64,000 bases of DNA from a virus (IMGVR_UViG_3300031992_000005:224001-288000), one strand, 5' to 3'. Numbered from the stretch's first letter, positions 27,663 to 56,274 are shown. Program-made: numbers and translations. Notes: generated by a model from the sequence alone, not told the origin.

Positions 27663-28145
27663 ATGTTTATACTTAGAATAAAAGAATTTACCTTTCGTGA
27701 AAATATGGATGAAGTTATACAATTGACTCCTAAGATTAAATTAGTAAAGAGCAGTATAGGGAGACTAGGCAAAATATTACGATACATTCCTTCTATTAGA
27801 CGAGATCAGGATGCCTTTGTTAATTATGACATCTTCTATTCGGGAAGAGAAAAGTCCATTGGTTTTATTCAGGTAGTAGATAATGGTAATCTTGAACTAA
27901 ATGTTGTACATATGGCCGTAGATGAAGATTTCCGTGGTCAAGGTATTGCTACTAAAATAATGGAAACTATCATAGCTTTTGGGAAAAAGTTAGGATATAA
28001 ATGTATCACTTTAGAGGCTGCAGATAATTCACCGGATGGAATCCATATTTATAGAAAATTAGGATTTAAAGACTTAGGTCACGTAGTATTAAAGGATGAT
28101 TTCCTTTGGGGCGGAGGTTATACAAAAATGAAATTAGACTTATGA
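27663..28145 (+). CDS. GNAT-family N-acetyltransferase carrying the N-terminal leader
   Basis: Acetyl-CoA motif A FRGQGIATKIMETIIAFGKKLGY (R/QxxGxG/A). Leader MFILRIKEFTF. Confidence 0.75.
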   Translation: MFILRIKEFTFRENMDEVIQLTPKIKLVKSSIGRLGKILRYIPSIRRDQDAFVNYDIFYSGREKSIGFIQVVDNGNLELNVVHMAVDEDFRGQGIATKIMETIIAFGKKLGYKCITLEAADNSPDGIHIYRKLGFKDLGHVVLKDDFLWGGGYTKMKLDL

Positions 28146-28273
28146 TAATCAAAAGAAAAAAGAAAACAACTGTAGACAAACACAGCTTAAGACAGGAGCA
28201 ATATGAGGAAAAGAAGGCTCCTGGTTTTCTTTCAACCTCAGAAACTAAGACAGTTACCTCACATTGGCCATGA
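28142..28273 (+). CDS. small basic protein with leader-like N-terminus (not in ORF track)
   Basis: My own translation gives MIIKRKKKTTVDKHSLRQEQYEEKKAPGFLSTSETKTVTSHWP. There are ATGA overlaps at both ends (28142-28145 and 28270-28273). Confidence 0.45.
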   Translation: MIIKRKKKTTVDKHSLRQEQYEEKKAPGFLSTSETKTVTSHWP

Positions 28274-29355
28274 TAATTCTAAGACAGAAAGAATATACTA
28301 GAGCTGAAAGAGAGGCACTAAAAGAGCTTTTACTTAAGACAAGAGGTTTTCAAAGATTACCTAACGGTGCTAAGATGACTGCTAGAGATGTAAACAGGTT
28401 TAATTATTTAGCAACAAGCGCACAACTTTGGACTAAAGGATATAAACCTGAATTAATTAAACTCAAGGGCCCAATTAAAAATGCAAAAACTTTTTTAGAA
28501 CATGCAGATCTAGGTAAATCTTCTAAGGAACTGGAACATGTAGTTAATAAATATTCTAATAAGAGAGCACTTGCCAGATGGCAAAGACTTATGAGGCGAA
28601 AAACTGAGTCTGAAAGAATAGAAAAAATGGTTCCTCTAAAAAAGATGAGAAAGGTAGAAAATTATGTTTCTGCAGATGCAAACGATTGTGCTAAATATGC
28701 GTCGTCAAAAATTAATATAAAAAGAGGGGAAGGTAATTTAATGTCATCTTTAGCAAAAGATGCTAAGAAGTATAATATTCCTATTATCCATTCCAAAGAT
28801 GGTGCAGGATATAGTTATCATCAACCGTTAAAAAAGACACGTAAGAGCGGGGTAGATAGTAAAGTTATTGAAAGTGCTTTTATATCAGATTCTAAAAAAG
28901 GATTTTCTAAAAAACAGGCCAAAAAATTAAAGTCTTTGGCGATAAATAATAATATTGAGGGTGCTATTGTTTTAGGGAGATCAGCCGGTCCTGGAACACT
29001 TGCACATGAGCTTGGACATCATATAACTGAGTATTTTATTCCTTCAGGTCGAAATTTAAGTCTAATAGAAGATGTTACAGATAAGTCAGCACGTACTATG
29101 GCTCGTAGACTAAAAAGGGGTGACCTTGACATAGTTAGATTAAATAGAAAATCTAAAAAAATCGGGAATGCACTCAATAATGTAGCTAATGAAAATAGTG
29201 CCACTTCTTATGGCTTAGCCAGATTAAAGAAACATGGTGCTACTCCAGAACAATTAGAAGAGTTTAGAAAAATGTTAGGTTCTAACGGAGCTTTAGGAAG
29301 TTACATAAATATTAATAGGGCAGACGTTTTTAAAACGTACGGTTCTAAGATATGA
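28270..29355 (+). CDS. putative zincin metallopeptidase (HExxH) carrying the leader
   Basis: GPGTLAHELGHHITEYF contains HExxH. The start is taken at ATG 28270 (MIILRQKEYT) rather than the TTG at 28264. Confidence 0.5.
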   Translation: MIILRQKEYTRAEREALKELLLKTRGFQRLPNGAKMTARDVNRFNYLATSAQLWTKGYKPELIKLKGPIKNAKTFLEHADLGKSSKELEHVVNKYSNKRALARWQRLMRRKTESERIEKMVPLKKMRKVENYVSADANDCAKYASSKINIKRGEGNLMSSLAKDAKKYNIPIIHSKDGAGYSYHQPLKKTRKSGVDSKVIESAFISDSKKGFSKKQAKKLKSLAINNNIEGAIVLGRSAGPGTLAHELGHHITEYFIPSGRNLSLIEDVTDKSARTMARRLKRGDLDIVRLNRKSKKIGNALNNVANENSATSYGLARLKKHGATPEQLEEFRKMLGSNGALGSYININRADVFKTYGSKI

Positions 29356-29396
29356 TTATATCAATATAAAAGAATATATTTGATTTAAATTTACAT

Positions 29397-30101
29397 ATGG
29401 ACACGATTAATCCTTTTTCAGACCCAGAGTTTAAGAAACAAATTTTGGAGTCATCACTAGGGAATGATGTGTCACCTGATAATTACGAGATTATAGAGGA
29501 CAATTCTGACACTAGTAAACAAGACTTAAAGTCCATGATATCAGGGGCACCAAAGTTACCTAGGTCAGCAAAGAATATCATTCTTGATGCTAGTGCTATA
29601 GCCAAGAATGAAAAAGAACAGAAGGTAAAAGAAATGGAGTTGGCTTTAAATCAAGTACTAACTTCATATAATAAAGAGTATGGTTTATCACTAAACTTAA
29701 ATTTGAGTGACTTAAGTAAGTCGCTTATTGATGTATCTGATCCAAAGAGAAGGAGAATCCTAGAGCTTTACGTATCAGAACTTTATTCTAGTGTTAGACC
29801 TCTTTTATACCTTCACCTGATACAGAAGTTATACGTGGCTATGGATTATATTCTTGATCCAGAGAGATTGCTTGGTAGTCAAGATCTAACCACGGCAGAT
29901 ATGTTTCTTGTAGTAGAGAAGCTTATGTCTTATATTGAGCAAATATCTCAACTTCAGGATGAAGTTACCATAAAGGGTGCCGACTTGGAGTTAAAGAAAA
30001 TAGCTGATGAAAATAAAGACATAGATTTCAATAGCTCTGAATCTAAAGAAACTATTGATAACTTTATGAAGCTCTTTAATAGAGAATCAGGTATTCAGTA
30101 G
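29397..30101 (+). CDS. hypothetical protein
   Basis: 234-aa ORF, helical and acidic. No leader and no motif. Confidence 0.65.
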   Translation: MDTINPFSDPEFKKQILESSLGNDVSPDNYEIIEDNSDTSKQDLKSMISGAPKLPRSAKNIILDASAIAKNEKEQKVKEMELALNQVLTSYNKEYGLSLNLNLSDLSKSLIDVSDPKRRRILELYVSELYSSVRPLLYLHLIQKLYVAMDYILDPERLLGSQDLTTADMFLVVEKLMSYIEQISQLQDEVTIKGADLELKKIADENKDIDFNSSESKETIDNFMKLFNRESGIQ

Positions 30102-30124
30102 GATGTGACTGAAGCGCAATATAA

Positions 30125-30175
30125 CCCTACAAGAGAATTGAAATAAGATTCTTGCTATTCGATTAGGTTGTAGGG
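30125..30175 (+). ncRNA. tRNA-like mini-cloverleaf, copy C
   Basis: Closing stem ccctacaa/ttgtaggg, hairpin gagaat-9 nt-attctt, hairpin cta-TTCGAT-tag. Intergenic, 25 nt upstream of gene 30201. Confidence 0.45.
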
Positions 30176-30200
30176 CCTAATTTATATAAAGTTTGAGTTT

Positions 30201-31907
30201 ATGAAAAAAAGCGAAGGATTTTTTCAAAAGATTTTTGGTTCCTATTCTATAGGTAACTCGAGAATGCCACTTAGAAGTAATATTTTCAAAGGAAACGGTT
30301 ACTCTCAGATAGGTGGTACGGGAAGATGGGGAAAGAATAGTATGAATAGACAGAGTCCTTTATTAGGTAACTCTAGCCCATCCAACCTTATCTCGGGTTA
30401 TTATGATAGAATAGATGAACTAAGGGGATATCAATTGTTGGATATTGTAAAACTAGCAACCAACTTTTTCTCAGATTACATAGTAAATTTCTTAGAGGAT
30501 AGTGGTTCTAAGGTAGTTACTATTTATTCAGAGGACGGTTCAACAGTTGATGAGGTAAAAACAGAAAGAATAAATGAGATCTTAACGAAAGATCTCAGAA
30601 TTTTTGATTATATTAAGGACCATGTTAAAGATATGGTCTTTTATGGGCAATATACAAGCTTAATTTGTAGGTCAAAGGACGAACTAGGACACACAAAGTT
30701 TAGATTTGAAGAGCTTAGTGATCCTGTATCTGTCATTTCTAAGAAAAAGAGAAACTCGGAAGGTGGTATTGATGAAACTTTCTTAGCTAGGGGTGAAGAT
30801 GGTAAGGTTTACGAAATTAATAAAAATGATGCCTTTACCTTAGGCAACATTAATCTTCGTCTTATCAATGACATGGAAGAAGGTTATAAAACTAAGAATA
30901 AAGAAAATCCAAAACCATCTTTCGGTAAGGTAGCGTCTGGAGAATCTGCATTGGATAAAATTAGGAAAACTTGTTCTTATTCTACAAGTGAACCCTTATT
31001 CTATTCCATGATTCTTAAAGTAAAGGAGTTGATTATTAAGGAACTCCTAGTTTCCTTAATTTCTCTTAGAGACCTTTCCAGCGTTCAGATTTTCTTACTA
31101 CAGTTCGATAAGAGTACTCCTATCGAAACTGCTAACGAACTTTGTGCTAGAACTACTAAGTTAGCGAATAATACAAATGAATTAGCTTCGTTCTTGACTA
31201 GTAACTTTGACGTTATTAGCTTCTTAGAGAATGTAATGTCTCAGTCCGCTAAGTTCGTTCCTGATTATAACTCTACTCTCGGCAATAAGAATAGTATGCT
31301 TCCATTAGATAAATTATCAGATAAAATTTTGGAAGTAATGCAAACAATTGATACCTGTAGAGCTAATGTTCTTAGTCCACTAGGTATTCCTAGTTCTATC
31401 CTAGATTCGACCAGTGGTAGTAAATGGACTATCTTACAGCAGTCAGAAAGAGCTAATAGTAGAGTTAGTGGATATATTGGCGGAGTAAAAGAATCTGTTC
31501 TGAACTTAGTATTAATCTTATACAATATTTTGTATGGAAAGGATCTTGATCCTAATCTCGTAAAGCTTCACGTATCAGAGAAGACCAGCGTAGAATACAA
31601 TAATCAGATTAATCAATCTGAGTCTATTGGTGGTCTTTTGACAGGTATTACAGGTGTTATTACAAACTCTCTACAGACACTCGAGGGAGCTGCTCCGCTT
31701 ATCGATACTAAGGCTTTCTTAAACTATATTCGTGGCTTGATTAAAGATATCGACCCAGACACAGAAGCACTAATTACGGATCAAACTGTAGAGGCTTATG
31801 CAGCATTCATGCAGTCTAAAGTAGCAGCTGCTGCAGAGAATCAGGGTATCGACCCAAGTACATTCATGAATATTCTTCAGGGAGATCAATCAGATAAAAT
31901 GATGTAA
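30201..31907 (+). CDS. portal protein candidate (T4 gp20-like)
   Basis: 568 aa, upstream of TerL in the head module. Blocks IVKLATNFFSDYIVNFL...VVTIYSED...INEILTKDL and NVLSPLGIPSSILD parallel T4 gp20 AVSEIVSDAIVYED...VVALNLDK and ALRVPLSRIP, compared from memory. Confidence 0.55.
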   Translation: MKKSEGFFQKIFGSYSIGNSRMPLRSNIFKGNGYSQIGGTGRWGKNSMNRQSPLLGNSSPSNLISGYYDRIDELRGYQLLDIVKLATNFFSDYIVNFLEDSGSKVVTIYSEDGSTVDEVKTERINEILTKDLRIFDYIKDHVKDMVFYGQYTSLICRSKDELGHTKFRFEELSDPVSVISKKKRNSEGGIDETFLARGEDGKVYEINKNDAFTLGNINLRLINDMEEGYKTKNKENPKPSFGKVASGESALDKIRKTCSYSTSEPLFYSMILKVKELIIKELLVSLISLRDLSSVQIFLLQFDKSTPIETANELCARTTKLANNTNELASFLTSNFDVISFLENVMSQSAKFVPDYNSTLGNKNSMLPLDKLSDKILEVMQTIDTCRANVLSPLGIPSSILDSTSGSKWTILQQSERANSRVSGYIGGVKESVLNLVLILYNILYGKDLDPNLVKLHVSEKTSVEYNNQINQSESIGGLLTGITGVITNSLQTLEGAAPLIDTKAFLNYIRGLIKDIDPDTEALITDQTVEAYAAFMQSKVAAAAENQGIDPSTFMNILQGDQSDKMM

Positions 31908-31908
31908 T

Positions 31909-32286
31909 ATGGAAGAGAAAAAAGATAAAAAAGTATCGCTTCTCGATAAAGACGATCTGGCTAAATCAGGTATAGTTGCAGGTAGTAGTGCTGCGGCTGT
32001 TGGCGGTGGTATTGCCGGATTAGCAGCAATGTCCGGAAGAATACTTAGAAGTAATAAGGTAAGTCTGAGTGAAAAGAGAGATCTTCTGGAGCATATTAAT
32101 AGAAGAGCACGTAACAATGGGTTTAATGGTGCTAAAAGTTATCTTAAACACATGAAGACTCTCGGAGGTGCAATAGCATTAACAGGTGTACCTGTTCTTG
32201 GTGTCTCTGCTTACATGCATCATAAGTATAAGAAGCAGATGAAAGATAAGGAAAAGATTGGATTAAATAATAATCAGCAAAATTAA
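31909..32286 (+). CDS. small protein with two Gly/Ala-rich hydrophobic segments
   Basis: GIVAGSSAAAVGGGIAGLAAMSG and GGAIALTGVPVLGVSAY. Basic C-terminus. Confidence 0.6.
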   Translation: MEEKKDKKVSLLDKDDLAKSGIVAGSSAAAVGGGIAGLAAMSGRILRSNKVSLSEKRDLLEHINRRARNNGFNGAKSYLKHMKTLGGAIALTGVPVLGVSAYMHHKYKKQMKDKEKIGLNNNQQN

Positions 32287-32305
32287 ATAATAGTCAACAA
32301 AGATC

Positions 32306-32830
32306 ATGATAGTACTAAGACCAAAAAAGATCTGTTTTCTTACAGGTTTTATGGCTAAAGAATTAGGAAAGCATCAGATAGAAGACTGTTTAAAATCTTT
32401 TATTCCAGAGCTACAAGTACCTAAATTAAGAAGTGATCCTAGTTTGGGTATTAATGATCTAAAGAAGATCCAGAAAACTAAGTGGGATTTAGTTATTGGT
32501 TTTAGTATGGGAGGATTTTACGCAACTAAAGTAAAATCCAGAAAAACATTTTTAATAAATCCGGGACTTAATATATCAGAGGGAATGATGACAAAAGTTC
32601 CTGAATACAGCCCAGGTTTCAAAATAATTGAAAAGCTACCGGATTTAGCAAAAGATGTGACAGGTATGATTGCTGTTAATGATAAAATTAGACCTTACAT
32701 AGAACCAATCTTTATTGAACGGTACGGTAAGGAAAACCTTATACATTTTCCCGGGAAACATGTACCAGAGATCCCGATAATCGAACAGTTTATTATACCA
32801 GAAATTAAAAAAATTATAGCTACCTTATAG
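32306..32830 (+). CDS. alpha/beta-hydrolase (esterase-like) carrying the leader
   Basis: Nucleophile elbow VIGFSMGG (GxSxG), a late His in HFPGKH, small single-domain size. Leader MIVLRPKKI. Confidence 0.55.
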   Translation: MIVLRPKKICFLTGFMAKELGKHQIEDCLKSFIPELQVPKLRSDPSLGINDLKKIQKTKWDLVIGFSMGGFYATKVKSRKTFLINPGLNISEGMMTKVPEYSPGFKIIEKLPDLAKDVTGMIAVNDKIRPYIEPIFIERYGKENLIHFPGKHVPEIPIIEQFIIPEIKKIIATL

Positions 32831-32852: not shown

Positions 32853-33254
32853 ATGATAATTCTTAGAAATAAAGTATTTGCTGTACCTCAAGCAGGAGAA
32901 ATGGTAGATATAGTAAAAAACGGAAAATATACAGGCCCTCCTCAATCTCCTCAGGCACAACCTCAGCAGGTTCCCCAAGAGATAACCTCAAGGGATCTTC
33001 AAATTGAGCAGATGAGATTACAAAGACAGCAAAGATTATTGCAGCATCAGAAAGCTAAGTTACAGGTGCAAGAAGGATTAGCAAGAACAAGAGCCATTAC
33101 ACAAAGACAGAAAATAGAAGACGAAAAAAGAGAGCATGATTTAAAGAATATAATGGAAATACATAAGAGAATTTACGATGATAATGAAGTACATAATCCC
33201 ACATTATATAAATCAAAGTCAACTATTACTGCACCTGTAGCTATGCCTAAATAA
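32853..33254 (+). CDS. leader-bearing Q-rich coiled-coil protein
   Basis: Leader MIILRNKVFA, then PQSPQAQPQQVPQ and QMRLQRQQRLLQHQKAKLQVQ. Confidence 0.65.
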   Translation: MIILRNKVFAVPQAGEMVDIVKNGKYTGPPQSPQAQPQQVPQEITSRDLQIEQMRLQRQQRLLQHQKAKLQVQEGLARTRAITQRQKIEDEKREHDLKNIMEIHKRIYDDNEVHNPTLYKSKSTITAPVAMPK

Positions 33255-40969: not shown

Positions 40970-43759
40970 ATGAAAAATACTCGTTTTATGGAAGCTATGT
41001 TCTCCAATACTGATGAAGAACTAGCAAAGCAGGTAGATAGTGACATTAAGTCTGCTCAGGCAGGTAATGTTGTTGATACCGATGAAGTGAAATATGAAAG
41101 AACCGGAAATGGCAATGATGTTGCTATTACCGATAAGGCTAATGGTGAAGTAACTATTGCTCAAAAGAGTGCTGACGAAGCTGATACCTATGACCTCATC
41201 GCTGTTCCGGATGAACAACTGGAAAAGTATGTTCACCCGTCTTCTGATGGAGTTACTCCAGGTAATCAGGTTGGTGCTCCAGATGAGTATTTTAAGACTC
41301 ACCTTGATGGACGTTCTGTTATTTCTCCAAATCTTCCAGATGGAGGTTTAAATCCAGACGCCGGACACGAAAGAAGCGTGACCGAAGTAGATGATGAGCA
41401 TCAGGATGCTTGTCCTGCCTGTGGTCAGAGTCCTTGCGAATGTGAAGAAGAGGGTAGAGAGTTTTCAGTAACTTCCGACAATGATGCTTGGCAGAAGATT
41501 TTCTCCATGCCACAAGAATTCGTAGACTATCTCTTCAGTGAAGTTATCGAATCTGAGGAAACTTCTAAGGTAGGTGACCTGAAAGTAGAGAAGTTGGCTG
41601 ATGAAGATAATGCGGTTATCGTTACTAGCGAATCAACTGGTGATCAGGTTAAAGTTAAATTAGAAGGAGACGAAATGGAAGTTACAGAACTTAACAGTAA
41701 GAGTTTTAGCAACGATGAGCAATTCATGCCATTGTTTGTTATAGGCGTTCAGCCTTATGACCATATCATTGTAGATGCACAGGAATATGGTCAGGAAAGT
41801 GCAGAGGAATTAAAGGCACAGCTTGAAGAGGATGGTGTAGAGGCAGTTCAGATTTTTGATAATCAGGATGAAGCTCGTGAATATGCTATTAATCTTCTTA
41901 ATAATCTAGGTGCTAATCCGGCTGCAGGTGATGTAGATGAACCAGAACTACAGAAGGAATATAGTGAAGCAGTAGGTTCTACAGTTTATACTACATCATA
42001 TAGAACAGATGACAGTGTTTTAATGAGTCGTATGTTCTCTGAGGAAGCTCTCGGTGTAGCAGATACTCAGGACACTGTAGAAGACGCAATTAAGTCTGGT
42101 CAAGAGACCGATATGGATGGCGCAATCGTTATTCCAGTAGATGCTACTAATGCAATTATTCAGGATGGTGATGAATTTACTAAGGCTACTTTGAATGGTG
42201 AAGATATGATTCTTGAAAATATCGATCCAGAAGAAGCACAGGCTATTCTAGGCGATTCTGATATAATGGAATATGAGGCATACGATGATGACGAGGATGA
42301 TTACGACGATGAAGAAGAAAGGGATTATTCTGACATTTATACGGATGAGTATGGAACTAAGTTCTTCTCTGAATACGAAGACTTCACCGATTATATGGAA
42401 AGACTCTTCTCTGATGAATCTGACCAAGAGCATATTGAGGATGCTATTGAGAATGGTGAGGAAATCGAGAATGAAACTGAAATCATCACACCAGTTAGCG
42501 CAACCACTGCAGTAGTAGAGGATAAGGAAACTGGTGAGTTTACTAAGGCTGTTCTTGATGACGGTACTATTGATGTTCATCCAATCGATAAGGGTGAAGC
42601 AAATGAGTTAATCAAGGACATCAAGGTAGAGGATGAAGTTGATGACGACGAGGAAGACGAAAAGGAATACTCTGATATTTATACGGATGATACAGAAACT
42701 AGATTCTTCTCTGGAGATGAAGAGTTTACAGACTATATGGAAAGACTCTTTACAGGTGAATCTGATCAAGACGTTATCGAAAGTGCTATCGAAGGCGGTC
42801 AGCAGGTAGAAAATGAAGAAGAAATTATTACTCCTGTCGACAGAAAGACTGCTGTCGTAGAAGATAAGGGTAATGGCGAATTCTCTAAGGTAACTATTCT
42901 CAATGATGATCAAATTAATGTTCATCCAATATCTGAAGATGAAGCTGATGAACTTACTGGTGATCTAGTAGTAGACGATGAAGAGGAAGTTGAACCTGAG
43001 CAGGGTGAATTCTCTGATATTTACACAGATGAAACAGAAACTAGATTCTTCTCTGAATATGAAGACTTCACTGATTACATGGAAAGACTCTTTACTGGTG
43101 AAGCAGATGAGGAACTTATAGAGAATGCTATCGAAGATGGTCAGCAAGTAGAAAATGACGGTGAGGTAATCACCCCAGTTGACTCTAAGACTGCAATAGT
43201 AGAAGATAAGAAAACTGGTGAATTCACTAAGGCAATTCTCAGTGATGATGACATCGACGTAGAACCTATCTCTGAGGAAGAGGCTAATGAGCTCACTGAA
43301 GATCTTAAAGTAGAGAATACTAAGGAAGAAGATGATGAAAGAAAGTTCTCTGAGAACAATGAACTTCTCGCTAGATTCTTTGCAGATGCAGGTATTCAGC
43401 AAGCACAGCCACAACAGGCAGTAGCCGCTCAGCCAGTTGCTGCAGCTCCAGCAGAGCAGGCAGCTGTAGACCCTAATGCAGTTCCAGTAGACCCTAATGC
43501 AGTTCCAGCTGAAGAAGGTGCTCCTGCTCCAACAGTAGAAAACATTGAAGATAAGGCTCTCGCTGCAATTCAGAGCATTAAGGCTGCAGTAGAAGAGGGT
43601 GCTGCTCAGATTATGGAGGCTAAGGCTGCTCCAGCTCCAAATGCAGAACCACAGATTCAGGAAGCTCAGTTCTCTGATTTCGAGTACTATGACGACGATG
43701 ATGATCAAAGAACATTCAGTGAGAATGATACCTTAATCTCTTGGCTAGCTAATAAATAA
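40970..43759 (+). CDS. highly acidic repeat protein, scaffold-like (position equivalent to T4 gp22)
   Basis: 929 aa and extremely D/E-rich. It has three near-identical 114-aa repeats plus diverged flanking copies, and lies immediately upstream of the capsid gene. Confidence 0.6.
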   Translation: MKNTRFMEAMFSNTDEELAKQVDSDIKSAQAGNVVDTDEVKYERTGNGNDVAITDKANGEVTIAQKSADEADTYDLIAVPDEQLEKYVHPSSDGVTPGNQVGAPDEYFKTHLDGRSVISPNLPDGGLNPDAGHERSVTEVDDEHQDACPACGQSPCECEEEGREFSVTSDNDAWQKIFSMPQEFVDYLFSEVIESEETSKVGDLKVEKLADEDNAVIVTSESTGDQVKVKLEGDEMEVTELNSKSFSNDEQFMPLFVIGVQPYDHIIVDAQEYGQESAEELKAQLEEDGVEAVQIFDNQDEAREYAINLLNNLGANPAAGDVDEPELQKEYSEAVGSTVYTTSYRTDDSVLMSRMFSEEALGVADTQDTVEDAIKSGQETDMDGAIVIPVDATNAIIQDGDEFTKATLNGEDMILENIDPEEAQAILGDSDIMEYEAYDDDEDDYDDEEERDYSDIYTDEYGTKFFSEYEDFTDYMERLFSDESDQEHIEDAIENGEEIENETEIITPVSATTAVVEDKETGEFTKAVLDDGTIDVHPIDKGEANELIKDIKVEDEVDDDEEDEKEYSDIYTDDTETRFFSGDEEFTDYMERLFTGESDQDVIESAIEGGQQVENEEEIITPVDRKTAVVEDKGNGEFSKVTILNDDQINVHPISEDEADELTGDLVVDDEEEVEPEQGEFSDIYTDETETRFFSEYEDFTDYMERLFTGEADEELIENAIEDGQQVENDGEVITPVDSKTAIVEDKKTGEFTKAILSDDDIDVEPISEEEANELTEDLKVENTKEEDDERKFSENNELLARFFADAGIQQAQPQQAVAAQPVAAAPAEQAAVDPNAVPVDPNAVPAEEGAPAPTVENIEDKALAAIQSIKAAVEEGAAQIMEAKAAPAPNAEPQIQEAQFSDFEYYDDDDDQRTFSENDTLISWLANK
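42320..43345 (+). repeat. 3 x 342-bp in-frame tandem repeat inside the acidic protein
   Basis: Units start at 42320 (RDYSDIYTDEYGTKFF), 42662 (KEYSDIYTDDTETRFF) and 43004 (GEFSDIYTDETETRFF). A diverged copy precedes at about 41978 and a partial copy follows at 43340 (RKFSENNELLARFF). Confidence 0.85.
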
Positions 43760-43787: not shown

Positions 43788-45239
43788 ATGACTGATTTTT
43801 CGTATCTCATGAGTAATCCTGACATGCAGGTTGCTCTTAGAAATAGTTCAGTATCTGCAGAAGATGCTGCAATTCGTGGTAGAGAATATGCAAAGATGTT
43901 CTCTCGTAATGCGGAGATGTTGGATACTCTCGGTATGGGCCGTAATTCTAACCTCCTTCAGAAGACTTTCTCTGGCTATGCAGAGACTCCACTTCTTAGC
44001 ACTCAGTATTTTAATGCATCTGTTGCTTCTTATGTAAGCTCTTTTGCAGGTTACATGAGTATTGAACGTGACTTCGACCAGCCTAATGGCTTGTTCTATT
44101 GGTTCGATGTTCTTGGTGTAACAGACCTTCGTCCAGTTATTCCTAACCTCGGTCCAGATAACTATCAGGATATTCAGACTATGGGTTACTTCGAGCTTGA
44201 CAATCAGATCGAAGCTAGCGGTAGCTATGCTCCAATCGTTGGTCGTAAGTTGATCCCAGGTACAGTACGAGTTAAGATCGTTAACAATGATGATACTAAG
44301 TCTGAACTCGTAGATGACGGTCAGGGTCACTTCATGGCTGTTCCAGGCGTACTTGATGCTGCAACGGACGCTACAATCAACTATCTCAGTGGTAATATTA
44401 CCTTTAAGCTTGCAAACCCAGCAGTAAAATCTGTTAAGGTCGTAGGTAAGGAAGATGTAACTGGTACTCCTAGTTGCACAACTGGTACTGCAAGTACTCA
44501 TGCAAATGACAAGCGTTTCATCGCTAAGATGCAGCAGCTTGGTCTTAGCACAGTTCCTGATATGCTCGTAGCTGAATATAACATTGCAGCTCTCGGCGCA
44601 CTCAAGAAGGCAACTGGCTCTGATATGGCTACATTCTTGTTCACTAAGCTTCGCGAGATCTATACTAAAACTATCAACTATAAGCTGGTAACTACTCTTG
44701 AGAATGGTTATACCGGTAACACTATTGATGATCTTGATCTTTCTAATGGTCCTACTTCTGGTCTTGCTCAGAATTTCTACGATTATCGTTCTCGTGTAGA
44801 CCTCTTTGACTCTTTCTTGATCAACGTTGAGTCTGCACTCGCTACAAAGGCAGTTAAGGGCGTTAAGACCACTGCTTATGTTGCAGGTAATCGTGCAAGT
44901 AACCAGTTCCAGAAGGGTGGTATCATCGGTAAGTGGGAATCTAACACTAAGATGTCTTATATCAATGACCTCCTTGGCTGGTACAATGGTATTCCAGTAC
45001 TACGGAGTACAGATATTGCAGAGGAAGATGGCGAAGGTACATTCTACGCTATTCACAAGACTGCTGATGGTCAGATGGCTCCACTTGCACGTGGTATCTA
45101 TATGCCTTTGACTGATACTCCAACTATTGGTAACTACAACAACCCTACTCAGATGGCTGCTGGTATCTACTACCAGGAAGGTGTTCGAGTAATGGCTCCT
45201 GAACTTGTTCAGAAGGTTACATTCAAGGTTGGTTTCTAA
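43788..45239 (+). CDS. major capsid protein (T4 gp23-like)
   Basis: 483 aa. C-terminal TQMAAGIYYQEGVRVMAPEL resembles T4 gp23 NEMDAGIYYAPYVALTPL. Codon usage is visibly different and C/T-rich at third positions, which gives shadow ORFs in other frames. A strong terminator follows. Confidence 0.7.
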   Translation: MTDFSYLMSNPDMQVALRNSSVSAEDAAIRGREYAKMFSRNAEMLDTLGMGRNSNLLQKTFSGYAETPLLSTQYFNASVASYVSSFAGYMSIERDFDQPNGLFYWFDVLGVTDLRPVIPNLGPDNYQDIQTMGYFELDNQIEASGSYAPIVGRKLIPGTVRVKIVNNDDTKSELVDDGQGHFMAVPGVLDAATDATINYLSGNITFKLANPAVKSVKVVGKEDVTGTPSCTTGTASTHANDKRFIAKMQQLGLSTVPDMLVAEYNIAALGALKKATGSDMATFLFTKLREIYTKTINYKLVTTLENGYTGNTIDDLDLSNGPTSGLAQNFYDYRSRVDLFDSFLINVESALATKAVKGVKTTAYVAGNRASNQFQKGGIIGKWESNTKMSYINDLLGWYNGIPVLRSTDIAEEDGEGTFYAIHKTADGQMAPLARGIYMPLTDTPTIGNYNNPTQMAAGIYYQEGVRVMAPELVQKVTFKVGF

Positions 45240-46518: not shown

Positions 46519-46905
46519 ATGATTACATTTAAGAGGAAAACATTTGAAACTGATATGATTCCGGAAGCTATTAAGCACCTAGAGTCTGAAAAGATAGATT
46601 TTAATGTTATTTCCCAAAAAGAAGCGGAAGCCGCTAGCAAAGTGAATGCTAAATCTATGGTTCTCATGTCTTTTGTTAAAACAGAGAAAGGATTTTACCA
46701 GATTACGGTTAAAGATAAGGAGTTTTATAATTACACTAAAAAACTCTTAAGTGATCCTAACTATTGTAGAATGAGAATCGTAGATGAAGACAAAAATAAG
46801 AGAACTGTTACTGTAGAAACAAATCACCTAGGCATAGTCCTAGATGTGATTGAGATCTTAGGTATCAAATACAATTTATCTATAGTAAAGAATGATAAAG
46901 TTTAG
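46519..46905 (+). CDS. leader-bearing protein
   Basis: Leader variant MITFKRKTFE. Confidence 0.6.
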   Translation: MITFKRKTFETDMIPEAIKHLESEKIDFNVISQKEAEAASKVNAKSMVLMSFVKTEKGFYQITVKDKEFYNYTKKLLSDPNYCRMRIVDEDKNKRTVTVETNHLGIVLDVIEILGIKYNLSIVKNDKV

Positions 46906-47575: not shown

Positions 47576-47800
47576 ATGATCTTATTGCGAAATAGAAATT
47601 TCTCTGGAACTAATATATTAAACACTAGTGGTGTTACCGGATTTATTAGGGGAAGAAAGTATGACACTGACTTAGATAGATTAGGTAGGATGAATACATC
47701 TCACAGAGAGATGACTAGAGTAGGTGATTTATCCAGAGAAATGAGAGAAATGTCTTCTGAATTAAATAGGGGACTTAGACAGAAAGATTTAAGAGATTAA
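47576..47800 (+). CDS. leader-bearing small protein
   Basis: Leader MILLRNRNFS. 74 aa. Confidence 0.55.
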   Translation: MILLRNRNFSGTNILNTSGVTGFIRGRKYDTDLDRLGRMNTSHREMTRVGDLSREMREMSSELNRGLRQKDLRD

Positions 47801-49300: not shown

Positions 49301-49705
49301 ATGATCTTATTCAGAAAATATTTTACCCAATGGGATGAAACGGACCAGCTTAAGGGGATGAAAGATTCTGATATATTGGCAGAGAAGAAAAGAAGTACGT
49401 CCTCGCTTGGACCTATGGTCGGCTCAGGCTTGGTGGGTGCATCTATTGGAGGTATTACCGGCGCAGTAAGTGGTGCCATTTCTGGCAGAGGTGCACGAAT
49501 CGCTACTGCAGGTAAAGTGGCTAAAAAGGGTGCAATCTTAGGTGCTGGTATAGGGGCTGCTACTGCTTATCTAAGGAATAAGAAAAAAGCAGATGAAAAC
49601 AAATTCTATAATCAGCGACTTGAATATGCTCAACGTCAAGCCTTAAGAAGAGAGCGAAAGGACTGGAAAACTAACATGACCCAGAGAGATGGCTATTCGT
49701 ACTAA
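49301..49705 (+). CDS. leader-bearing Gly-zipper protein
   Basis: Leader variant MILFRKYFTQ, then GSGLVGASIGGITGAVSGAISG and GAILGAGIGAATAYL. Confidence 0.65.
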   Translation: MILFRKYFTQWDETDQLKGMKDSDILAEKKRSTSSLGPMVGSGLVGASIGGITGAVSGAISGRGARIATAGKVAKKGAILGAGIGAATAYLRNKKKADENKFYNQRLEYAQRQALRRERKDWKTNMTQRDGYSY

Positions 49706-50276: not shown

Positions 50277-50960
50277 ATGATAAAATTTAAACGAAAAGAG
50301 TTTAGTAATTATATTTTATCTAATACTATAAAAGGGGCAAGCATTGGTGCTACTATAGGTACTGGAATGGCTGGTTTGAACTTATCTGATAATATGAGGG
50401 GAGATAATTGGTTTGCAAGAACATATAATAGTCAGGCCAGAAATAGCAATGATAGAAGTTACCCCAAACAAACCACCAACCAAAAACTCCTTATTGCTGC
50501 TGCAGGTACCCTAATCGGAGCTGCTCTTGGTGCTATTGTAGGTACTGTCAAGGCTGTTACAGAAAAAACATCTCAGCATGGTACTGATCATAGACTTCTT
50601 AAAGATGTAATGAAAACATTAAGTTCCCTAGGTTACAAAGAAGGTATTGACTATACAAGAGATCCTGAAACTGCAAATAGGCTAAAAACAAGGGTTTGTC
50701 TGGTTATTACAAGAGATGCAGCTAATATCTCCCTCCTAGTAAATATGGTGAATGATAATAAGCTCTCTAAGGATGCAGATAAAATTCTTAGAAGTTTACC
50801 AGGAAAACCTCAGATAAGATATAGTAGAACAACTGATAAATATAATGACATTACAATCTCTACTATTTCTAAGTCCGGCTCAAATGCAGACTTAGTGACG
50901 AATATAGTAGATGGATTTATTAAAGCAGGTTATCCAGTTTACCTAGTTGAAGTAGGATAA
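50277..50960 (+). CDS. leader-bearing protein with Gly-zipper segments
   Basis: Leader MIKFKRKEFS, then GASIGATIGTGMAGL and LLIAAAGTLIGAALGAIVGTV. Confidence 0.65.
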   Translation: MIKFKRKEFSNYILSNTIKGASIGATIGTGMAGLNLSDNMRGDNWFARTYNSQARNSNDRSYPKQTTNQKLLIAAAGTLIGAALGAIVGTVKAVTEKTSQHGTDHRLLKDVMKTLSSLGYKEGIDYTRDPETANRLKTRVCLVITRDAANISLLVNMVNDNKLSKDADKILRSLPGKPQIRYSRTTDKYNDITISTISKSGSNADLVTNIVDGFIKAGYPVYLVEVG

Positions 50961-51002: not shown

Positions 51003-53228
51003 ATGGCACAGTGGAAAGAAACTCTTGAACCCTATATTAGAGTTCATGAGAAAATTAAGGTTGCAGCACTTAACCCAGTAGCAGGTGAAGATTTAATCAT
51101 CGGGTGTGCATTTATTTCCGATGCAGGACCATCTCTACCTACACTTATTACTAGTCAGAAGGAATTCTTAGAGACTTATTCTTCTCAGGATATTACCGAG
51201 GATTATATTACTAGTCTCGATGATTTCTATACAAACGCTACGACAGGTGGTGATCCTCATCTAGGATCTACTATGTGGCTTAATGCATATCGTTTGGCTG
51301 GTTCTAATACTCTCTTGGCAGTGCGTGCAACAAAAGCAAAGGACCTTTATTACGCTAAGACAAGCGCTTACCCTAACGACGATTATATAGTACGTGATGG
51401 GCAAGTATTAAAGAAGATAAACGTAGGTGACGGATTAAAGATTTGTTACGATAGCGATGAAGATAGTGCAGACTGGAAGAAATTAGGTTGGGCTATTAAA
51501 CTAAGAAATATCGGTATAGTAGGTAACCTAGTAACTGAAGATGGAGTTAAATATGATTATTACGTAGATAATTTGTTTGACCTAGTTGAATATCTCAATG
51601 ATACTAGTGTATTCTTTAGTCCTAATTATGAATTTCACGACAATATTAATCAGGATGACGGAACACCCCAAACCCCAAGTACAACTAAAATATCAGAAGA
51701 TGCACTTCGAAACGGTGACAAGGAGAAAAATACTGTAAAAGCAGTAGTATTTAAGGAACTTTACTTAGGTAGTCGTATCCTAGATGCACTCGACCTTACC
51801 GGCTCAACTACTGAAGAAAGCAATGCTGAATATGGACTCATGAACATAATAGTTGGTCAATCTACTTGGACATCAGGTAATGAGTCACAGCCAGTTATTG
51901 CACTAAATGATGCAAATCATTCAGGTTTTGATCAGAAGAGTACTCTTGATAAAGGCTATGTAACTAACGTGTATAATTCAGCTACTAAGCTAGAAGTTAG
52001 AATTAGACGTTTTAATCATGATGCTGTAGCTACTAAACAGTTAACTAAACCAGATTCTAGTAGGGGCGGAAATTCTCCATATACAGTAGTATTACCTAAT
52101 TCTCTTTCGGCTTTAAACGTAAAGAGGGATTTTTACGAAATTGCCGTTTTTGATCCAAGTGTTAGTGGAGAATCCTTGTATTTTAACCTAGGTACTGTAC
52201 TGAGCTTAGGTGATATGGAATTAGTTGATATAAATAATTCCCTTAAGATGGTACAGATAACTTTGCCTGATAAACTTAGTGATCTTGGATTAGATTATTA
52301 TGGCTCAGCAGGTTCTACTCAGGAGTACTATTACGATTTAAAGCTAGATCCCGATAACACATCTCTTCTAGATGTATCCAACTCTGATATACTCAAGGCA
52401 TTAGATCAGATTCCTCTTAACGAAGTTTATACTGTAGAGGGACTCACTGACCTTGGTTGTACAGAGCCAATGGTTCAGTCTTACATGGCTAATATGGCTA
52501 TTAACGATAACTTCTTCTATCCAATTTCAACAGTTAATAGCACAAACTACTTAGCTATCGCTAATTCTATCCTACGTATTAGTCAGGATTTCTATAAGCT
52601 GTATGCAAGTGCACCTTGGGACGTGGATACTGGCACAATGGGTTGGAAGTTCTATTGCTCACCTAGTGTTCTTTACTGGGAAACCGTAGGTAGAAACAGA
52701 CGTCTTGGTAGAGAGTTTGCTCCAGTTCTTGGTCAGACTAATGGTATTGCACAATATCAGAAGCCTGTAGCTGAATTCAATAAGAAGACCCGTCAGCTAC
52801 TCCTTTCTAAGAAGATCAATACTGTTCTTTGGGATGTTCAGACTCAAGCTTGGGATTGGAACGACAACTATACAAAGCAGACTGAAAACAACATTATGTC
52901 TGATGAGGCTAATAGCCGCCTGATGATTCGTATTAGCAAGGCTATGCCAGTACTTCTCCGTCAGTTTATTGGTAGAAGAATTGGTGCTGTCCTTTGGAAT
53001 GACATGTATAATGTAATCGACTACTGGTTTAAGACTACTATTCTAGGCATGACTTATACAATTGATGGTTATAGAATTACAATTGATGAGTCTAACAATA
53101 CCCCAGAAGATGCTCGTGCAAATCGAGTGAACGTCTTAGTGGAAGTTCGTTATCAGAGAGCTGCTAAGTATATTGAAGTTTATAACAACGCATTCGACGT
53201 TGGTATGGAATTCGACGGCATTATGTAA
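51003..53228 (+). CDS. contractile tail sheath protein (T4 gp18-like)
   Basis: N-terminal GPSLPTLITSQKEFLETY. C-terminal ITIDESNNTPEDARANRVNVLVEVRYQRAAKYIEVYN parallels T4 gp18 CDTTNNTPSVIDRNEFVATFYIQPARSINYITLNF. Confidence 0.8.
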   Translation: MAQWKETLEPYIRVHEKIKVAALNPVAGEDLIIGCAFISDAGPSLPTLITSQKEFLETYSSQDITEDYITSLDDFYTNATTGGDPHLGSTMWLNAYRLAGSNTLLAVRATKAKDLYYAKTSAYPNDDYIVRDGQVLKKINVGDGLKICYDSDEDSADWKKLGWAIKLRNIGIVGNLVTEDGVKYDYYVDNLFDLVEYLNDTSVFFSPNYEFHDNINQDDGTPQTPSTTKISEDALRNGDKEKNTVKAVVFKELYLGSRILDALDLTGSTTEESNAEYGLMNIIVGQSTWTSGNESQPVIALNDANHSGFDQKSTLDKGYVTNVYNSATKLEVRIRRFNHDAVATKQLTKPDSSRGGNSPYTVVLPNSLSALNVKRDFYEIAVFDPSVSGESLYFNLGTVLSLGDMELVDINNSLKMVQITLPDKLSDLGLDYYGSAGSTQEYYYDLKLDPDNTSLLDVSNSDILKALDQIPLNEVYTVEGLTDLGCTEPMVQSYMANMAINDNFFYPISTVNSTNYLAIANSILRISQDFYKLYASAPWDVDTGTMGWKFYCSPSVLYWETVGRNRRLGREFAPVLGQTNGIAQYQKPVAEFNKKTRQLLLSKKINTVLWDVQTQAWDWNDNYTKQTENNIMSDEANSRLMIRISKAMPVLLRQFIGRRIGAVLWNDMYNVIDYWFKTTILGMTYTIDGYRITIDESNNTPEDARANRVNVLVEVRYQRAAKYIEVYNNAFDVGMEFDGIM

Positions 53229-53240
53229 TTATAATTTAAT

Positions 53241-53285
53241 GGGTAATACCTCATTTTGATGGTGGGGTATTACTCAATTTTTATT
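53241..53285 (+). terminator. rho-independent terminator after the sheath gene
   Basis: gtaatacc (53243-53250) pairs with ggtattac (53266-53273), followed by tcaattttt. It overlaps the 5' end of track ORF 53256, so that gene more likely starts at 53292. Confidence 0.55.
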
Positions 53286-53291
53286 CAATAT

Positions 53292-54089
53292 ATGGATAAG
53301 ACATTATTAGTAGATCTCAAAAAGAAGATGTTCATGAGATCTGCCTTAATCTCCTTAGAGGATTCATTGGATGATGTTCTATCGCTTAGTGCTTCATTGA
53401 CAGCGGATGAGATTCTCCTAGAGATTATCAAAAAAGCTCTAAGGGAATTCGAACTAACTAATCCACTTATCCTTGAAATGCCAATGTCTAGGGAACAGAT
53501 GTTAAGTTGTACTGCTCCCAATGGCTTCCTAGAAGTAAAAAGTAATTTTACTCTATACTTAAAGTGCATGATTCCGGAATATAGGATTATCCTAGTTCCA
53601 GTATCAATGCCATGTTGGAGAGTAGGAGATAATTCTGTAACAACTAATTTCTCCTCTTATATAGGAGGTACTAGTATTCCTCAACCAGGTGCTTATACTT
53701 ACTTTACTGAATATAGAAAACCTTATGTCTTTGTAGGTGACTTAGGCTTATTGCAAGGATTGGGGGGTAGTGGTATTATAATGAAAGGTATTTGTAGCAG
53801 ACCAATAACTCCGGATTGGACAGAAGATAAGAAGTTTAATTCAGCATCGGAAACATCTGCCGTATATTGGATGGATGTAGAGACTGGAGGTGCAAGAGGT
53901 AACTACTTCATGGATCTCTGTATGGTTCATCTCTTAGACTATATCCGTCAATTAAAGGCATCTATTTCACTCAACAATGTATCAGTTGATGTTATGGGTA
54001 ATGTTGATTCAGCTTATCAAGAGCTTCGAAGTAGGTGTGACCAATATGCATTACAATCTGGATGGTATGGCGAACTATTATATAACTAG
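53292..54089 (+). CDS. hypothetical tail/neck-module protein
   Basis: In-frame Met 13 of track ORF 53256 (MDKTLLVDLKK...). No motif recognised. Confidence 0.6.
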   Translation: MDKTLLVDLKKKMFMRSALISLEDSLDDVLSLSASLTADEILLEIIKKALREFELTNPLILEMPMSREQMLSCTAPNGFLEVKSNFTLYLKCMIPEYRIILVPVSMPCWRVGDNSVTTNFSSYIGGTSIPQPGAYTYFTEYRKPYVFVGDLGLLQGLGGSGIIMKGICSRPITPDWTEDKKFNSASETSAVYWMDVETGGARGNYFMDLCMVHLLDYIRQLKASISLNNVSVDVMGNVDSAYQELRSRCDQYALQSGWYGELLYN

Positions 54090-54092
54090 TAT

Positions 54093-54647
54093 ATGATTAT
54101 ACTCAGACAAAAAGAATATGCTTCGAGATTATTGAAAGCTGTAAGATCAGTCAAACGAGCAGGAAATAGTGCTATGACTGTGATTGACAATGCAGGTTTA
54201 AAAACAGGTAATACTATTAAAAAGTTCGTTACCGGTAAGAGTATTCCTGCACAAGTAGAGGCTAATTTTAAGCCTAAAACCAACTTCCAAATTAACAGAG
54301 AAACGGTTAAAGCAAAAAACGTCGTAAAAGATGCTGCAAACGCAGTTAAAGAACGCCCCGGTGCAGTACTCGATGATGGTATAAGTTTTGCAGCCAAGAA
54401 TCCAATTGCAGCTGCAGGGCAAGTGGGAAGTGTTGCTCTTCCTTTGGCTGATCCAGTATTTTTGGGCGTCCCTATAGGCACGCCTTCAGCTGTTATTGAC
54501 GTAACAGCAAAGAAGTTTATTAAGCCATATGATAAATATACAGAAAGAATTTCAAGAGCATACGATAGATCCAATTTCAGTAGGAATCTTAGAAGAATGC
54601 CTAATGCAACTGAAGTGATTGATAACATAAAGAGGAAATTTAAATAA
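54093..54647 (+). CDS. leader-bearing protein
   Basis: Leader MIILRQKEYA. The minus-strand ORF 54086-54628 is its shadow. Confidence 0.65.
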   Translation: MIILRQKEYASRLLKAVRSVKRAGNSAMTVIDNAGLKTGNTIKKFVTGKSIPAQVEANFKPKTNFQINRETVKAKNVVKDAANAVKERPGAVLDDGISFAAKNPIAAAGQVGSVALPLADPVFLGVPIGTPSAVIDVTAKKFIKPYDKYTERISRAYDRSNFSRNLRRMPNATEVIDNIKRKFK

Positions 54648-54666
54648 TAAACATGAAGAAAGGTGT

Positions 54667-56274
54667 ATGATAAAATTTAAAAAAAAAGAATTTACCATAC
54701 CTGAAGGACATTACACTGGCCCAAAAGACCTAACTGAAATTCCCGGAACTGTTGAAATGATAAAGAAGGGTATTGGTATTGGGGCGGTTACTGGTGGAAT
54801 AGCTGGAGGTGTAGTAAAGGATTCTTCTATAATTGAAGGAGCCTTATCAGGAGCTAAAGTAGGAACTATCGGTGGAATAGCTGCAAAACTCTTGTTGAAT
54901 TATATACATAAACCAATGACTACGATTAAATACCAAGAGGTAGATAAGACTATACGTAGACAATTCGGTATTTATCAGATTTCTGGATTTACTTTAGGCG
55001 ACAATACAATTAATAAAGGAAATATAAGGGATAAGTTCAGTTATAATGACAGAAATGTAAGTGACTATAAAATAAATTTTGCGATTTACAACAATAAGGT
55101 CACTATGTACACCTTTGGAATTACAAAAAATGAGCTAGACGGTATATCAAAAATTTTGGACGAATATTGTAAGAAATATTATGCAATGGAATATTCAGCT
55201 AAACTCATTAATCAAAAAGTATACTCTTATTCGGTAGATATTACGTTTACTAATTATCAAGTGATCAGTAATTTTATTATGGAATTGAGTAATTTTATTA
55301 ATAGTAAGATTAATCTATTGGATAATAATGCAATAATAGGGCCTAGATTACTAGAGAGTGCTGAACAGAAGAATGACTTAACTGAGGAAGAAAAAACCTA
55401 CTCTGTTAGTTCAATAAATAAATATGATTTAATAAAAATTCTGACAAAAGGTGCCACAATAGGTTTCAATATTGCAAGTTTAGCAAAAGGAAGCGCTTCA
55501 ACTGCAATTTTAGCATTAATTGCGGAAGGAATTAAACACCTTGGAAAAAATGAAATTAATAAAATTGCCGGAAATTCTGGACAGAAAATAGCTGACTTAA
55601 ATAACATATTTTTGGAAAGTGAGCTCAATAAACTTCATTACGTAGATGGTTTTAATTATACTACTGGAAATGAGGCTAATAAATTAAACATATCTCTAAA
55701 TTCAGGAATTTTTATTATAACCGCAGTTAAAGATCTGGAAGAGGAACTTGATAAGAAGATTTGGAAAACTTTTCCTGGAAAAGTGAACAAATCGAAAATT
55801 AGTGGAATTAGTGTTTATTCTTATGTAGTAAAAAATATCAGTGAATTCGAGATGTTACTAAATAAGGTAATGTCTGTAGGTGGTAGTAATGTTAAACCAA
55901 ACTTATTTGATAATTCTGCTTTTAAGAAAAAGAAACTATTTTCAAACAATATGGTAGAAAAATTAACAGATAATTTAGAAAAAGATGGATTAGAGGATTT
56001 TGAAATTAGTGATAGAATCCCCAAGGATGTAATTAGTATTACTACTGATTTAAAGAATATCAGTATTTACATTCCATTTGACCTAGATTATGCCCAGTAC
56101 GAAATTGATGACGAAATCAGACGGAATGCTAAGTTTCTTAGAACAAAAACAGTTCTAGATAGAAATATATATAGAATGACATTAATAGGTGGAACACTAA
56201 CCTTTAGCCAGTATTACAATGTCGTTAAATATATAATAAAGGAGCTAGGATTTTGTACTTTATTAGATCAATAA
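54667..56274 (+). CDS. leader-bearing 535-aa protein with N-terminal Gly-zipper
   Basis: Leader MIKFKKKEFT, then GIGIGAVTGGIAGGVV...GALSGAKVGTIGGIAA. Confidence 0.7.
   Translation: MIKFKKKEFTIPEGHYTGPKDLTEIPGTVEMIKKGIGIGAVTGGIAGGVVKDSSIIEGALSGAKVGTIGGIAAKLLLNYIHKPMTTIKYQEVDKTIRRQFGIYQISGFTLGDNTINKGNIRDKFSYNDRNVSDYKINFAIYNNKVTMYTFGITKNELDGISKILDEYCKKYYAMEYSAKLINQKVYSYSVDITFTNYQVISNFIMELSNFINSKINLLDNNAIIGPRLLESAEQKNDLTEEEKTYSVSSINKYDLIKILTKGATIGFNIASLAKGSASTAILALIAEGIKHLGKNEINKIAGNSGQKIADLNNIFLESELNKLHYVDGFNYTTGNEANKLNISLNSGIFIITAVKDLEEELDKKIWKTFPGKVNKSKISGISVYSYVVKNISEFEMLLNKVMSVGGSNVKPNLFDNSAFKKKKLFSNNMVEKLTDNLEKDGLEDFEISDRIPKDVISITTDLKNISIYIPFDLDYAQYEIDDEIRRNAKFLRTKTVLDRNIYRMTLIGGTLTFSQYYNVVKYIIKELGFCTLLDQ

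Follow-up and report, generated by a model that had tools for sequence, protein, structure and literature searches.

The 64,000-nucleotide stretch IMGVR_UViG_3300031992_000005:224001-288000 (called the window below, always at its full length) is of viral origin and has about 34% G+C, with nearly all genes on one strand. Between positions 27663 and 56274, 20 genes of the + strand begin with M-[ILV]-[ILVKT]-[LIFK]-[RK]-x-[KR]-x-[FY]-[STAG] or with a variant one residue longer or shorter. This N-terminal leader, the genes that carry it and the head genes lying among them (Table 1) are the subject of the present analysis.

Leader genes and head module

A strict form of the pattern, M[ILVFA][ILVKT][LIFTKY][RK]x[KRV]x[FYK][STAVEQI], was applied to the 447 ATG-initiated open reading frames (ORFs) of at least 40 residues on both strands of the window; it is matched by 18 of these starts, against 0.034 expected from amino-acid composition. 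Each of the 18 belongs to a real gene of the + strand, from 27663 to 54667, and the strict leader is absent from all other ORF starts screened in the window; the genes at 32306 and 49301 have variant leaders. The N-termini quoted in the original prediction, which had described this leader, were all recovered in place, and its claim that the upstream genes lack the leader agrees with a count of 0 among the 27 genes before 27.6 kb. As for the three looser variants that it listed, the ORFs at 34047 (16 residues) and 28142 (43 residues) are unconvincing as genes, and the one at 40112 is a carrier of the motif, with two tandem cleavage-type copies at its N-terminus (MKRLKIF↓S...RRKIF↓SG; here and below the arrow marks a predicted cut between P1 and P1'), rather than of the leader itself.

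With the leader removed, the 20 products are mostly unrelated, as had been claimed: BLASTP links only the pairs 50277/54667 and 34507/37539, and the others are singletons. Among the individual assignments made earlier, the GNAT at 27663 is confirmed by Pfam and the HExxH protein has a legible HELGH motif in 28270; for the alpha/beta hydrolase proposed at 32306 there is a single weak Pfam match only (UPF0227, E = 1.2e-4). Searches of nearly all leader proteins against Pfam, PHROGs and PDB sequences returned nothing beyond the GNAT and this weak UPF0227 match. The mature products do have a charge in common: an isoelectric point (pI) above 8 is predicted for 19 of 21 (counting the doubtful 28142 ORF together with the 20 leader genes), against only 2 of the 16 other virion-module proteins, and the portal-sized protein, the capsid protein, the sheath and the large tail proteins lie at pI 4-7.

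Judged by its predicted fold, the gene at 38829-40115 encodes a T4-type (U9/S77) prohead protease. By Foldseek, the AlphaFold model (mean predicted local distance difference test score 77) matches T4-type prohead proteases in BFVD with E = 2e-7 to 1e-4 and probability 1.0, the matched entries including 'Peptidase U9, T4 prohead protease', 'Prohead core scaffolding protein and protease [Tenacibaculum phage PTm1]' and several named 'prohead core protein serine protease'; the protein sequence has no match in Pfam, PHROGs or PDB sequences, and its 364 homologues are all unannotated. In an alignment of 36 homologues, an N-domain (about residues 1-195) with invariant His51 (LTHRGR), Asp75, Asp76 and Ser144 (LTCSLVV) is followed by a variable linker and a helical C-domain. 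The only invariant residues of the linker are four sites of KxF↓S type, in the forms K[TE]F↓S (F203-S204), VKx[FY]↓S (F/Y228-S229), LKAKEF↓S (LKAKEF255-S256) and QKEF↓[ST] (QKEF↓T at about 275), which resemble what autoprocessing sites would look like. A profile search extends the family to 233 clusters at 50% identity, and its remote members (HMMER E about 1e-30 to 1e-52) still have ...[FY]S sites in the linker. The fold match in BFVD and the invariant His51 and Ser144 uphold the gp21-like protease of the original prediction. Of the capsid and scaffold-like proteins that it also named, the former has weak tblastn matches to annotated capsid proteins and the latter a net charge of -203. The protease gene is followed by those of a 284-residue Zn-ribbon protein, the 929-residue scaffold-like protein and the capsid protein, an arrangement that mirrors T4 genes 21-22-23 (protease, scaffold, capsid protein).

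The C-terminal half of the leader, [KR]-x-[FY]↓[STAG], recurs within the scaffold-like, capsid, protease and Zn-ribbon proteins. The scaffold-like protein has 17 copies, against 0.9 expected by shuffling, and its orthologues in 13 relatives have 11-20 copies (1.1 or less expected); it has no match in Pfam, PHROGs or PDB sequences. Three repeats of about 114 residues (EYSDIYTD...RFFSEYEDFTDYMERLF[ST]...) were seen in it, each with several predicted cleavage sites. The Zn-ribbon protein has 5 copies against 0.6 expected; its CxxC...CxxC lies at residues 39-62, and its gene overlaps the protease stop codon. In the capsid protein the first 55 or so residues vary between relatives, and the sequence is near-invariant from NLLQKTF↓SGYAETPLL on. 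Because the motif falls at this switch, a maturation cut is predicted after Phe61 (NLLQKTF61↓S62GYAETP), close in position to residue 65, at which T4 gp23 is trimmed. No match to the portal-sized protein was found in Pfam, PHROGs or PDB sequences. From the recurrence of the motif we infer that the protease cuts after Phe or Tyr with Lys or Arg at P3; leader-type MIILRQKEFSxx and NLLQKTFSGYAE are candidate substrate peptides.

Table 1. Leader genes and other virion genes of the window, with the predicted cut marked by an arrow
Coordinates	Strand	Product or leader	Features
27663..28145	+	MFILRIKEF↓T	GNAT acetyltransferase, 160 aa; Pfam Acetyltransf_7, E = 1e-13
28270..29355	+	MIILRQKEY↓T	361 aa, very basic (net +38), HELGH motif
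30201..31907	+	Portal-sized protein, candidate only	568 aa; conserved near-N-terminal FQK[IM]F↓G
32306..32830	+	MIVLRPKKI, variant	No aromatic P1; weak UPF0227/esterase-like match
32853..33254	+	MIILRNKVF↓A	133 aa
33366..33644	+	MIITRNKFY↓S	92 aa
33673..34044	+	MIILRTKEF↓S	123 aa
34507..34950	+	MIIIRTKEF↓S	Gly/Ala-rich, 147 aa; paralogue of 37539
36982..37182	+	MIIIRYKTF↓A	66 aa
37192..37389	+	MIVLRQKQY↓S	65 aa, pI 11.8
37539..38132	+	MLIKRNVYF↓S	Gly/Ala-rich, 197 aa; paralogue of 34507
38214..38747	+	MIILRNKLY↓S	177 aa
38829..40115	+	Prohead protease, T4 gp21 / U9-S77 fold (predicted)	428 aa; Foldseek of AlphaFold model; alignment
40112..40966	+	Zn-ribbon protein	284 aa, between protease and scaffold; weak Pfam match
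40970..43759	+	Scaffold-like protein	929 aa, net charge -203, internal repeats
43788..45239	+	Major capsid protein	Weak tblastn matches to annotated capsid proteins
46519..46905	+	MITFKRKTF↓E	128 aa
46892..47575	+	MIKFRQKIF↓S	227 aa; core family
47576..47800	+	MILLRNRNF↓S	74 aa
47805..48107	+	MATYRLKRKTY↓G, longer flavour	Glycine-zipper protein, 100 aa
48126..49295	+	MIKFRQKNF↓V	389 aa, net +30
49301..49705	+	MILFRKYF↓T, variant	One residue shorter; Gly-rich, 134 aa
50277..50960	+	MIKFKRKEF↓S	227 aa; paralogue of 54667
51003..53228		Tail sheath	phrog_23
54093..54647	+	MIILRQKEY↓A	184 aa, net +18
54667..56274	+	MIKFKKKEF↓T	535 aa; five more internal [KR]x[FY][STAG] motifs

Distribution across the clade

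The leader is a trait of the whole clade to which this phage belongs. A survey of the window and 84 relatives (85 loci), made with a loose scoring rule, found it on 367 ORFs, a few of them marginal matches to that rule. Clustered by BLASTP after removal of the leader, these ORFs form 44 families, 25 of which are restricted to one locus; some contigs have arrays of 10-12 leader genes, and the arrays differ between contigs. At the other extreme, the core family of 46892 is present in 82 of the 85 loci, and a protein identical to the 46892 product is encoded on a contig of 353,905 bp. Its orthologues carry either M-IKFRQKxF↓S or MSTYRLKRKVF↓S before the same SEYDAMR... body, and the leader flavours are modular and exchangeable on one orthologous mature protein. 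In the AlphaFold2 model of the 46892 product, two small domains are separable from a disordered leader and a disordered linker; in the orthologues this linker is a low-complexity segment rich in Asn and Gln, highly variable in length, in which one Q[KR]xF site is kept.

More than 80 relatives with capsid proteins 68-80% identical to that of the window were found in IMG/VR, many of them on contigs measuring 340-400 kb that came from gut samples of humans and animals. A near-identical relative of the window, IMG/VR 3300032030_000046, has a capsid protein 100% identical to the window's on a contig that is not sequence-identical to the window, and two further leader genes, MIILRHKNF↓S and MIILRNSYF↓S, lie there in sequence beyond the window, which brings the tagged set to more than the 20 genes seen here. 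Among 50,697 GenBank phages, neither the head module (by megablast) nor three protease homologues (by tblastn) had a match, and the capsid protein finds only capsid proteins about 25% identical. This phage's capsid gene is also present in CASEGV010000001.1 (370,971 bp) and JAGAYY010000025.1 (376,162 bp), labelled by GTDB 'uncultured Mycoplasmatota bacterium' and 'Bacilli bacterium', respectively; both are probably phage genomes mis-binned as bacteria. The size, the habitat and the T4-like traits agree with those of the 'Jug' jumbo gut phages, which have genomes of 360-402 kb and predicted Bacteroides/Phocaeicola hosts and account for about 1.1% of human gut reads (PMC12880540). With its higher G+C, the window represents a relative, not a member, of the described Jug groups.

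A homologous protease also exists in a distant clade of five loci (IMG/VR contigs of 75-201 kb with 40% G+C, several from the Human Microbiome Project), where the order is a scaffold-like protein (net charge -134), a 481-residue capsid-sized protein, the protease and, downstream, an array of basic proteins. N-terminal ends of the form ...R-x-F↓S (RSF↓S) occur there on the scaffold-like, capsid-sized, protease and basic-array proteins, and the stereotyped MIILRxK head is missing. A search for distant loci with P0169 as the query gave no match; an alignment-based query succeeded.

Elsewhere in the window, a tandem array of about 13 paralogous genes (102-179 residues) with overlapping stop/start junctions lies at 14836-21359; three of the proteins start with MVELCI, and the three members scanned have no Pfam match. 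At 2244-3730 a calcineurin-like phosphoesterase adjoins a microbial-type poly(ADP-ribose) glycohydrolase domain (PF10021, E = 2.7e-22), a ThyX thymidylate synthase is encoded at 6412-7308, and the 743-residue protein of 21366-23597 has a weak C-terminal FtsH-like peptidase M41 domain (E = 8e-6, under the Pfam cut-off). A tRNA scan of the window found none.

A proposed two-part leader and its possible roles

A comparison of 131 distinct leaders with 301 sites in the scaffold-like proteins reveals a common core, namely Lys or Arg at P3, Phe or Tyr at P1 and Ser, Ala or Thr at P1'. Beyond this core the two sets part: P5 is basic in 99% of the leaders and in 3% of the scaffold sites; hydrophobic residues at P8-P6 (residues 2-4), Arg5 and a fixed length of nine residues from Met1 are found in leaders only, and the scaffold sites are acidic at P9-P4. 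The fixed length, the hydrophobic residues 2-4 and Arg5, being absent at internal sites, suggest a second function, which would be targeting. The T4 capsid-targeting sequence (CTS) offers an analogy, since of its ten residues the N-terminal ones determine targeting, and residues 8 and 10 determine processing (PMC9026906).

We therefore propose that the leader is a propeptide of about nine residues in two parts. The C-terminal half, [RK]-x-[KR]-x-[FY]↓[S/T/A/G], would be the recognition site of the T4-gp21-type serine protease, with the cut after the aromatic residue; that the phage's own protease makes this cut is very likely. The N-terminal half has Met, then three residues that are mostly hydrophobic, then Arg5, and keeps a constant spacing from the cut; it is dispensable at internal cleavage sites and would thus most likely serve to recruit the protein to the assembling prohead, possibly by docking on the very acidic scaffold core, or on the protease or the inside of the shell. 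Once assembly is complete, the protease would break up the scaffold by cutting it at 11-20 sites, shorten the capsid protein at LLQKTF↓SG and remove the leaders. Twenty or more basic proteins would then be free in the head with the DNA and available for ejection into the host; the cargo would include the GNAT acetyltransferase, the HExxH protein, the hydrolase-like protein and several glycine-zipper proteins. By analogy with T4, a CTS-like tag that loads basic cargo on the acidic core of the scaffold, to be cut off afterwards by the prohead protease, is the probable identity of the leader, and for the additional targeting role taken by itself the balance tips, somewhat less far, in favour. The fullest form of the proposal, in which M-hydrophobic3-Arg docks, K-x-F↓S releases and more than 20 basic proteins per genome, drawn from a pool of more than 40 families, are loaded into the capsid by an abundant clade of ~350-400-kb gut phages and delivered with the DNA, may be right or wrong with about equal chance; so too the notion that this fast-turning pool comprises an acetyltransferase, a metalloprotease-like protein and membrane-active glycine-zipper proteins. 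The capsid-targeting or propeptide tag of the original prediction thus gains support from selection on the peptide, the protease fold, the common motif and the basic cargo; packaging, cleavage, encapsidation and injection of the leader proteins are predicted.

Several observations weigh against the proposal of a cleavable targeting tag. The protease has no PDB match, by Foldseek of the full model or by sequence search, so that its class is drawn from matches between predicted structures, and its Phe/Tyr specificity is read from motif recurrence only. The leader genes at 50277, 54093 and 54667 sit among tail genes, and residence of their products in the head is not assured by position; the leader of 32306 has no aromatic P1. 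A functional match was obtained for the GNAT only among the leader proteins searched, Foldseek of the 46892 model gave no structural match or recognisable fold, and the clade has no cultured member. Lastly, the conservation of residues 1-5 could reflect the needs of cutting very near an N-terminus instead of targeting.

This last point bears on the alternative that the leader is a propeptide removed by the protease and nothing more, for example one that keeps enzymes or membrane-active proteins inert until head maturation; the proteins would then enter the prohead otherwise, or some may not be head proteins. The cleavage core common to leaders and internal sites would be expected under such a scheme, a protease that cuts nine residues into a protein with a free N-terminus may depend on additional contacts at P5-P9, and the distant clade has ...RxF↓S ends with no stereotyped head. 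However, nine residues are too short for masking a fold, the length, the hydrophobic 2-4 block and Arg5 are kept over about 44 unrelated families, the leader flavours exchange as modules, and the T4 tag of the same size separates targeting from processing (PMC9026906). Removal without targeting is accordingly a minority reading, which we consider unlikely although it deserves attention.

A host protease might instead remove the leader, as Prp, a C108 protease, does with the L27-like MLxx(D/N)LQ(F/L)F↓A that staphylococcal phage 80alpha has on its capsid and scaffold proteins. The two kinds of leader are built alike (about 9 residues, Met and hydrophobics, Phe at P1, a small P1') (PMC9405229, PMC5744158), and the two clade contigs found in GTDB metagenome-assembled genomes are assigned to 'Mycoplasmatota' and 'Bacilli', lineages with Prp. 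Still, P3 is Lys and not Gln, P4 is not Leu, and P5 is Arg and not Asn/Asp; the motif is repeated 11-20 times in the scaffold and occurs in the linker of the phage protease, a pattern typical of prohead proteases. For the related Jug phages, CRISPR spacers give Bacteroides/Phocaeicola as the predicted hosts (PMC12880540), and Bacteroidota are not among the phyla reported with long L27 (PMC9405229). Among the window proteins scanned, a part of the ORFs and of a genome of about 354 kb, none has a Prp-like Pfam match. In view of the motif, the repeated sites and the predicted hosts, processing by Prp is very improbable.

Conservation at the level of nucleic acid, as a translation-initiation enhancer, a downstream box or a late-gene promoter in genes lacking a Shine-Dalgarno sequence, was assessed on the 5' ends of 96 distinct leaders in the window and in relatives. 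Shine-Dalgarno sequences are absent from most of the window genes examined, leader genes among them, and A-rich synonymous codons (AGA, AAA, ATA, CTA) are favoured early: AGA encodes Arg5 in 83% of leaders, compared with a background of 57%. This mild A-rich preference is the sole nucleotide-level signal. Synonymous codon usage otherwise matches background, with all three codons for Ile, all six for Leu and both AGY (41%) and TCN for Ser; the information content of the DNA begins at the ATG, spans 30 nt with a period of three and is near zero at wobble positions except where the amino acid dictates it, and no upstream motif, promoter or Shine-Dalgarno, is common to the leader genes. Across the 46892 orthologues, F4, Q6, K7 and F9 are fixed while their codons split about 1:1, and the amino acids at positions 3 and 8 vary freely. 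Moreover, the leader is missing from the most-needed late proteins (capsid protein, sheath, portal-sized protein), and the same peptide motif is found deep within ORFs. Selection on the leader acts at the peptide level, as the original prediction had argued from its varied Leu codons, and a nucleic-acid element is scarcely credible. Equally far-fetched is a signal for secretion or membrane insertion (Sec, lipoprotein or prepilin type), to which the N-terminal hydrophobic residues followed by basic ones and the glycine-zipper or hydrophobic segments of several carriers might point, because the hydrophobic run has three residues only and not a core of at least seven, its hydrophobic-then-basic order is the reverse of a signal peptide with its basic n-region, no AxA, lipobox Cys or G↓F prepilin site is present, and many carriers are soluble and highly charged.

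Comparison with known systems

The leaders removed by Prp (L27, the 80alpha capsid and scaffold, a phi13 tail protein) likewise have about nine residues, a cut between Phe and a small residue, and non-homologous virion proteins behind them (PMC9405229, PMC5744158). Of the Prp motif MLxx(D/N)LQ(F/L)F↓A(S/H)KK, however, only the P1 Phe and the small P1' are found here: the site reads NLQFF↓A there and RxKxF↓S here, Prp is a host cysteine protease, and multiple internal scaffold sites occur here and not there. In phiKZ-like giant phages (SPN3US gp245, phiKZ gp175) a T4-like prohead protease also processes several head proteins, ejected ones included, but it recognises A/S/G-x-E↓, the propeptides are mostly of 111-254 residues and not stereotyped, about 80% of the head proteins are uncleaved, and there is no common short leader (PMC10052503); the present leaders differ from these in both motif and length.

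The T4 CTS has the sequence MKTYQEFIAE, and gp21 cuts after Glu by an L/I-x-E rule. LIE-9 is one example of such a site (PMC9026906). The CTS of IPI, IPII, IPIII and Alt, removed by gp21, is a propeptide of 10-19 N-terminal residues common to diverse proteins (PMC9026906, PMC3012670), and the T4 internal proteins are highly diverse defence proteins that have only the conserved CTS in common (PMC3012670). The present system resembles it in most respects: a short N-terminal propeptide is common to unrelated proteins (18 strict and 2 variant leaders in the window), it ends in a predicted prohead protease motif that is found also in the scaffold, capsid and protease, a gp21-type protease by fold is encoded next to the scaffold and capsid genes, targeting determinants would be N-terminal and processing determinants C-terminal, and the cargo is basic, with a gene set that varies between relatives. 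In contrast, the leader has no sequence similarity to MKTYQEFIAE, its predicted cut follows Phe/Tyr with Lys/Arg at P3 and not Glu, some 20 genes in 29 kb are tagged (about 44 families clade-wide) where T4 has a handful, and the divergence of the protease is beyond what sequence searches detect. MIILRxKxF↓S with its aromatic P1 is thus an analogue, not a homologue, of the T4 tag.

It follows that the statement in the original prediction that no such leader had been described holds for the sequence and the clade and not for the concept, given the diverse T4 internal proteins that have only the CTS in common (PMC3012670, PMC9026906). Neither the leader strings nor a description of the motif was found in the literature searched, and the paper on the Jug phages does not mention the leader or contain the term 'N-terminal' (PMC12880540). 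T4 had already revealed the CTS principle; new here are the tag's sequence, a Phe/Tyr specificity predicted for a protease with gp21 fold, the number of carriers (about 20 genes within 29 kb, more than 40 families clade-wide) and the occurrence in abundant uncultured jumbo gut phages. To our knowledge, a Phe/Tyr-specific cut has not been described for T4-type prohead proteases. If the proposal is correct, a single motif of nine residues would predict which proteins are packaged, and probably injected, throughout a phage clade; they would be the largest tagged 'injected proteome' known for a tailed phage. The motif would also supply a sequence rule for listing candidate anti-defence or host-takeover effectors in uncultured genomes as well as a possible cargo-loading tag for engineering Bacteroidota phages. 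T4-type prohead proteases would gain a new K/R-x-F/Y↓S specificity, spread over at least 233 clusters at 50% identity, and the CTS principle of T4-like phages would have a counterpart of unrelated sequence on a much larger scale.

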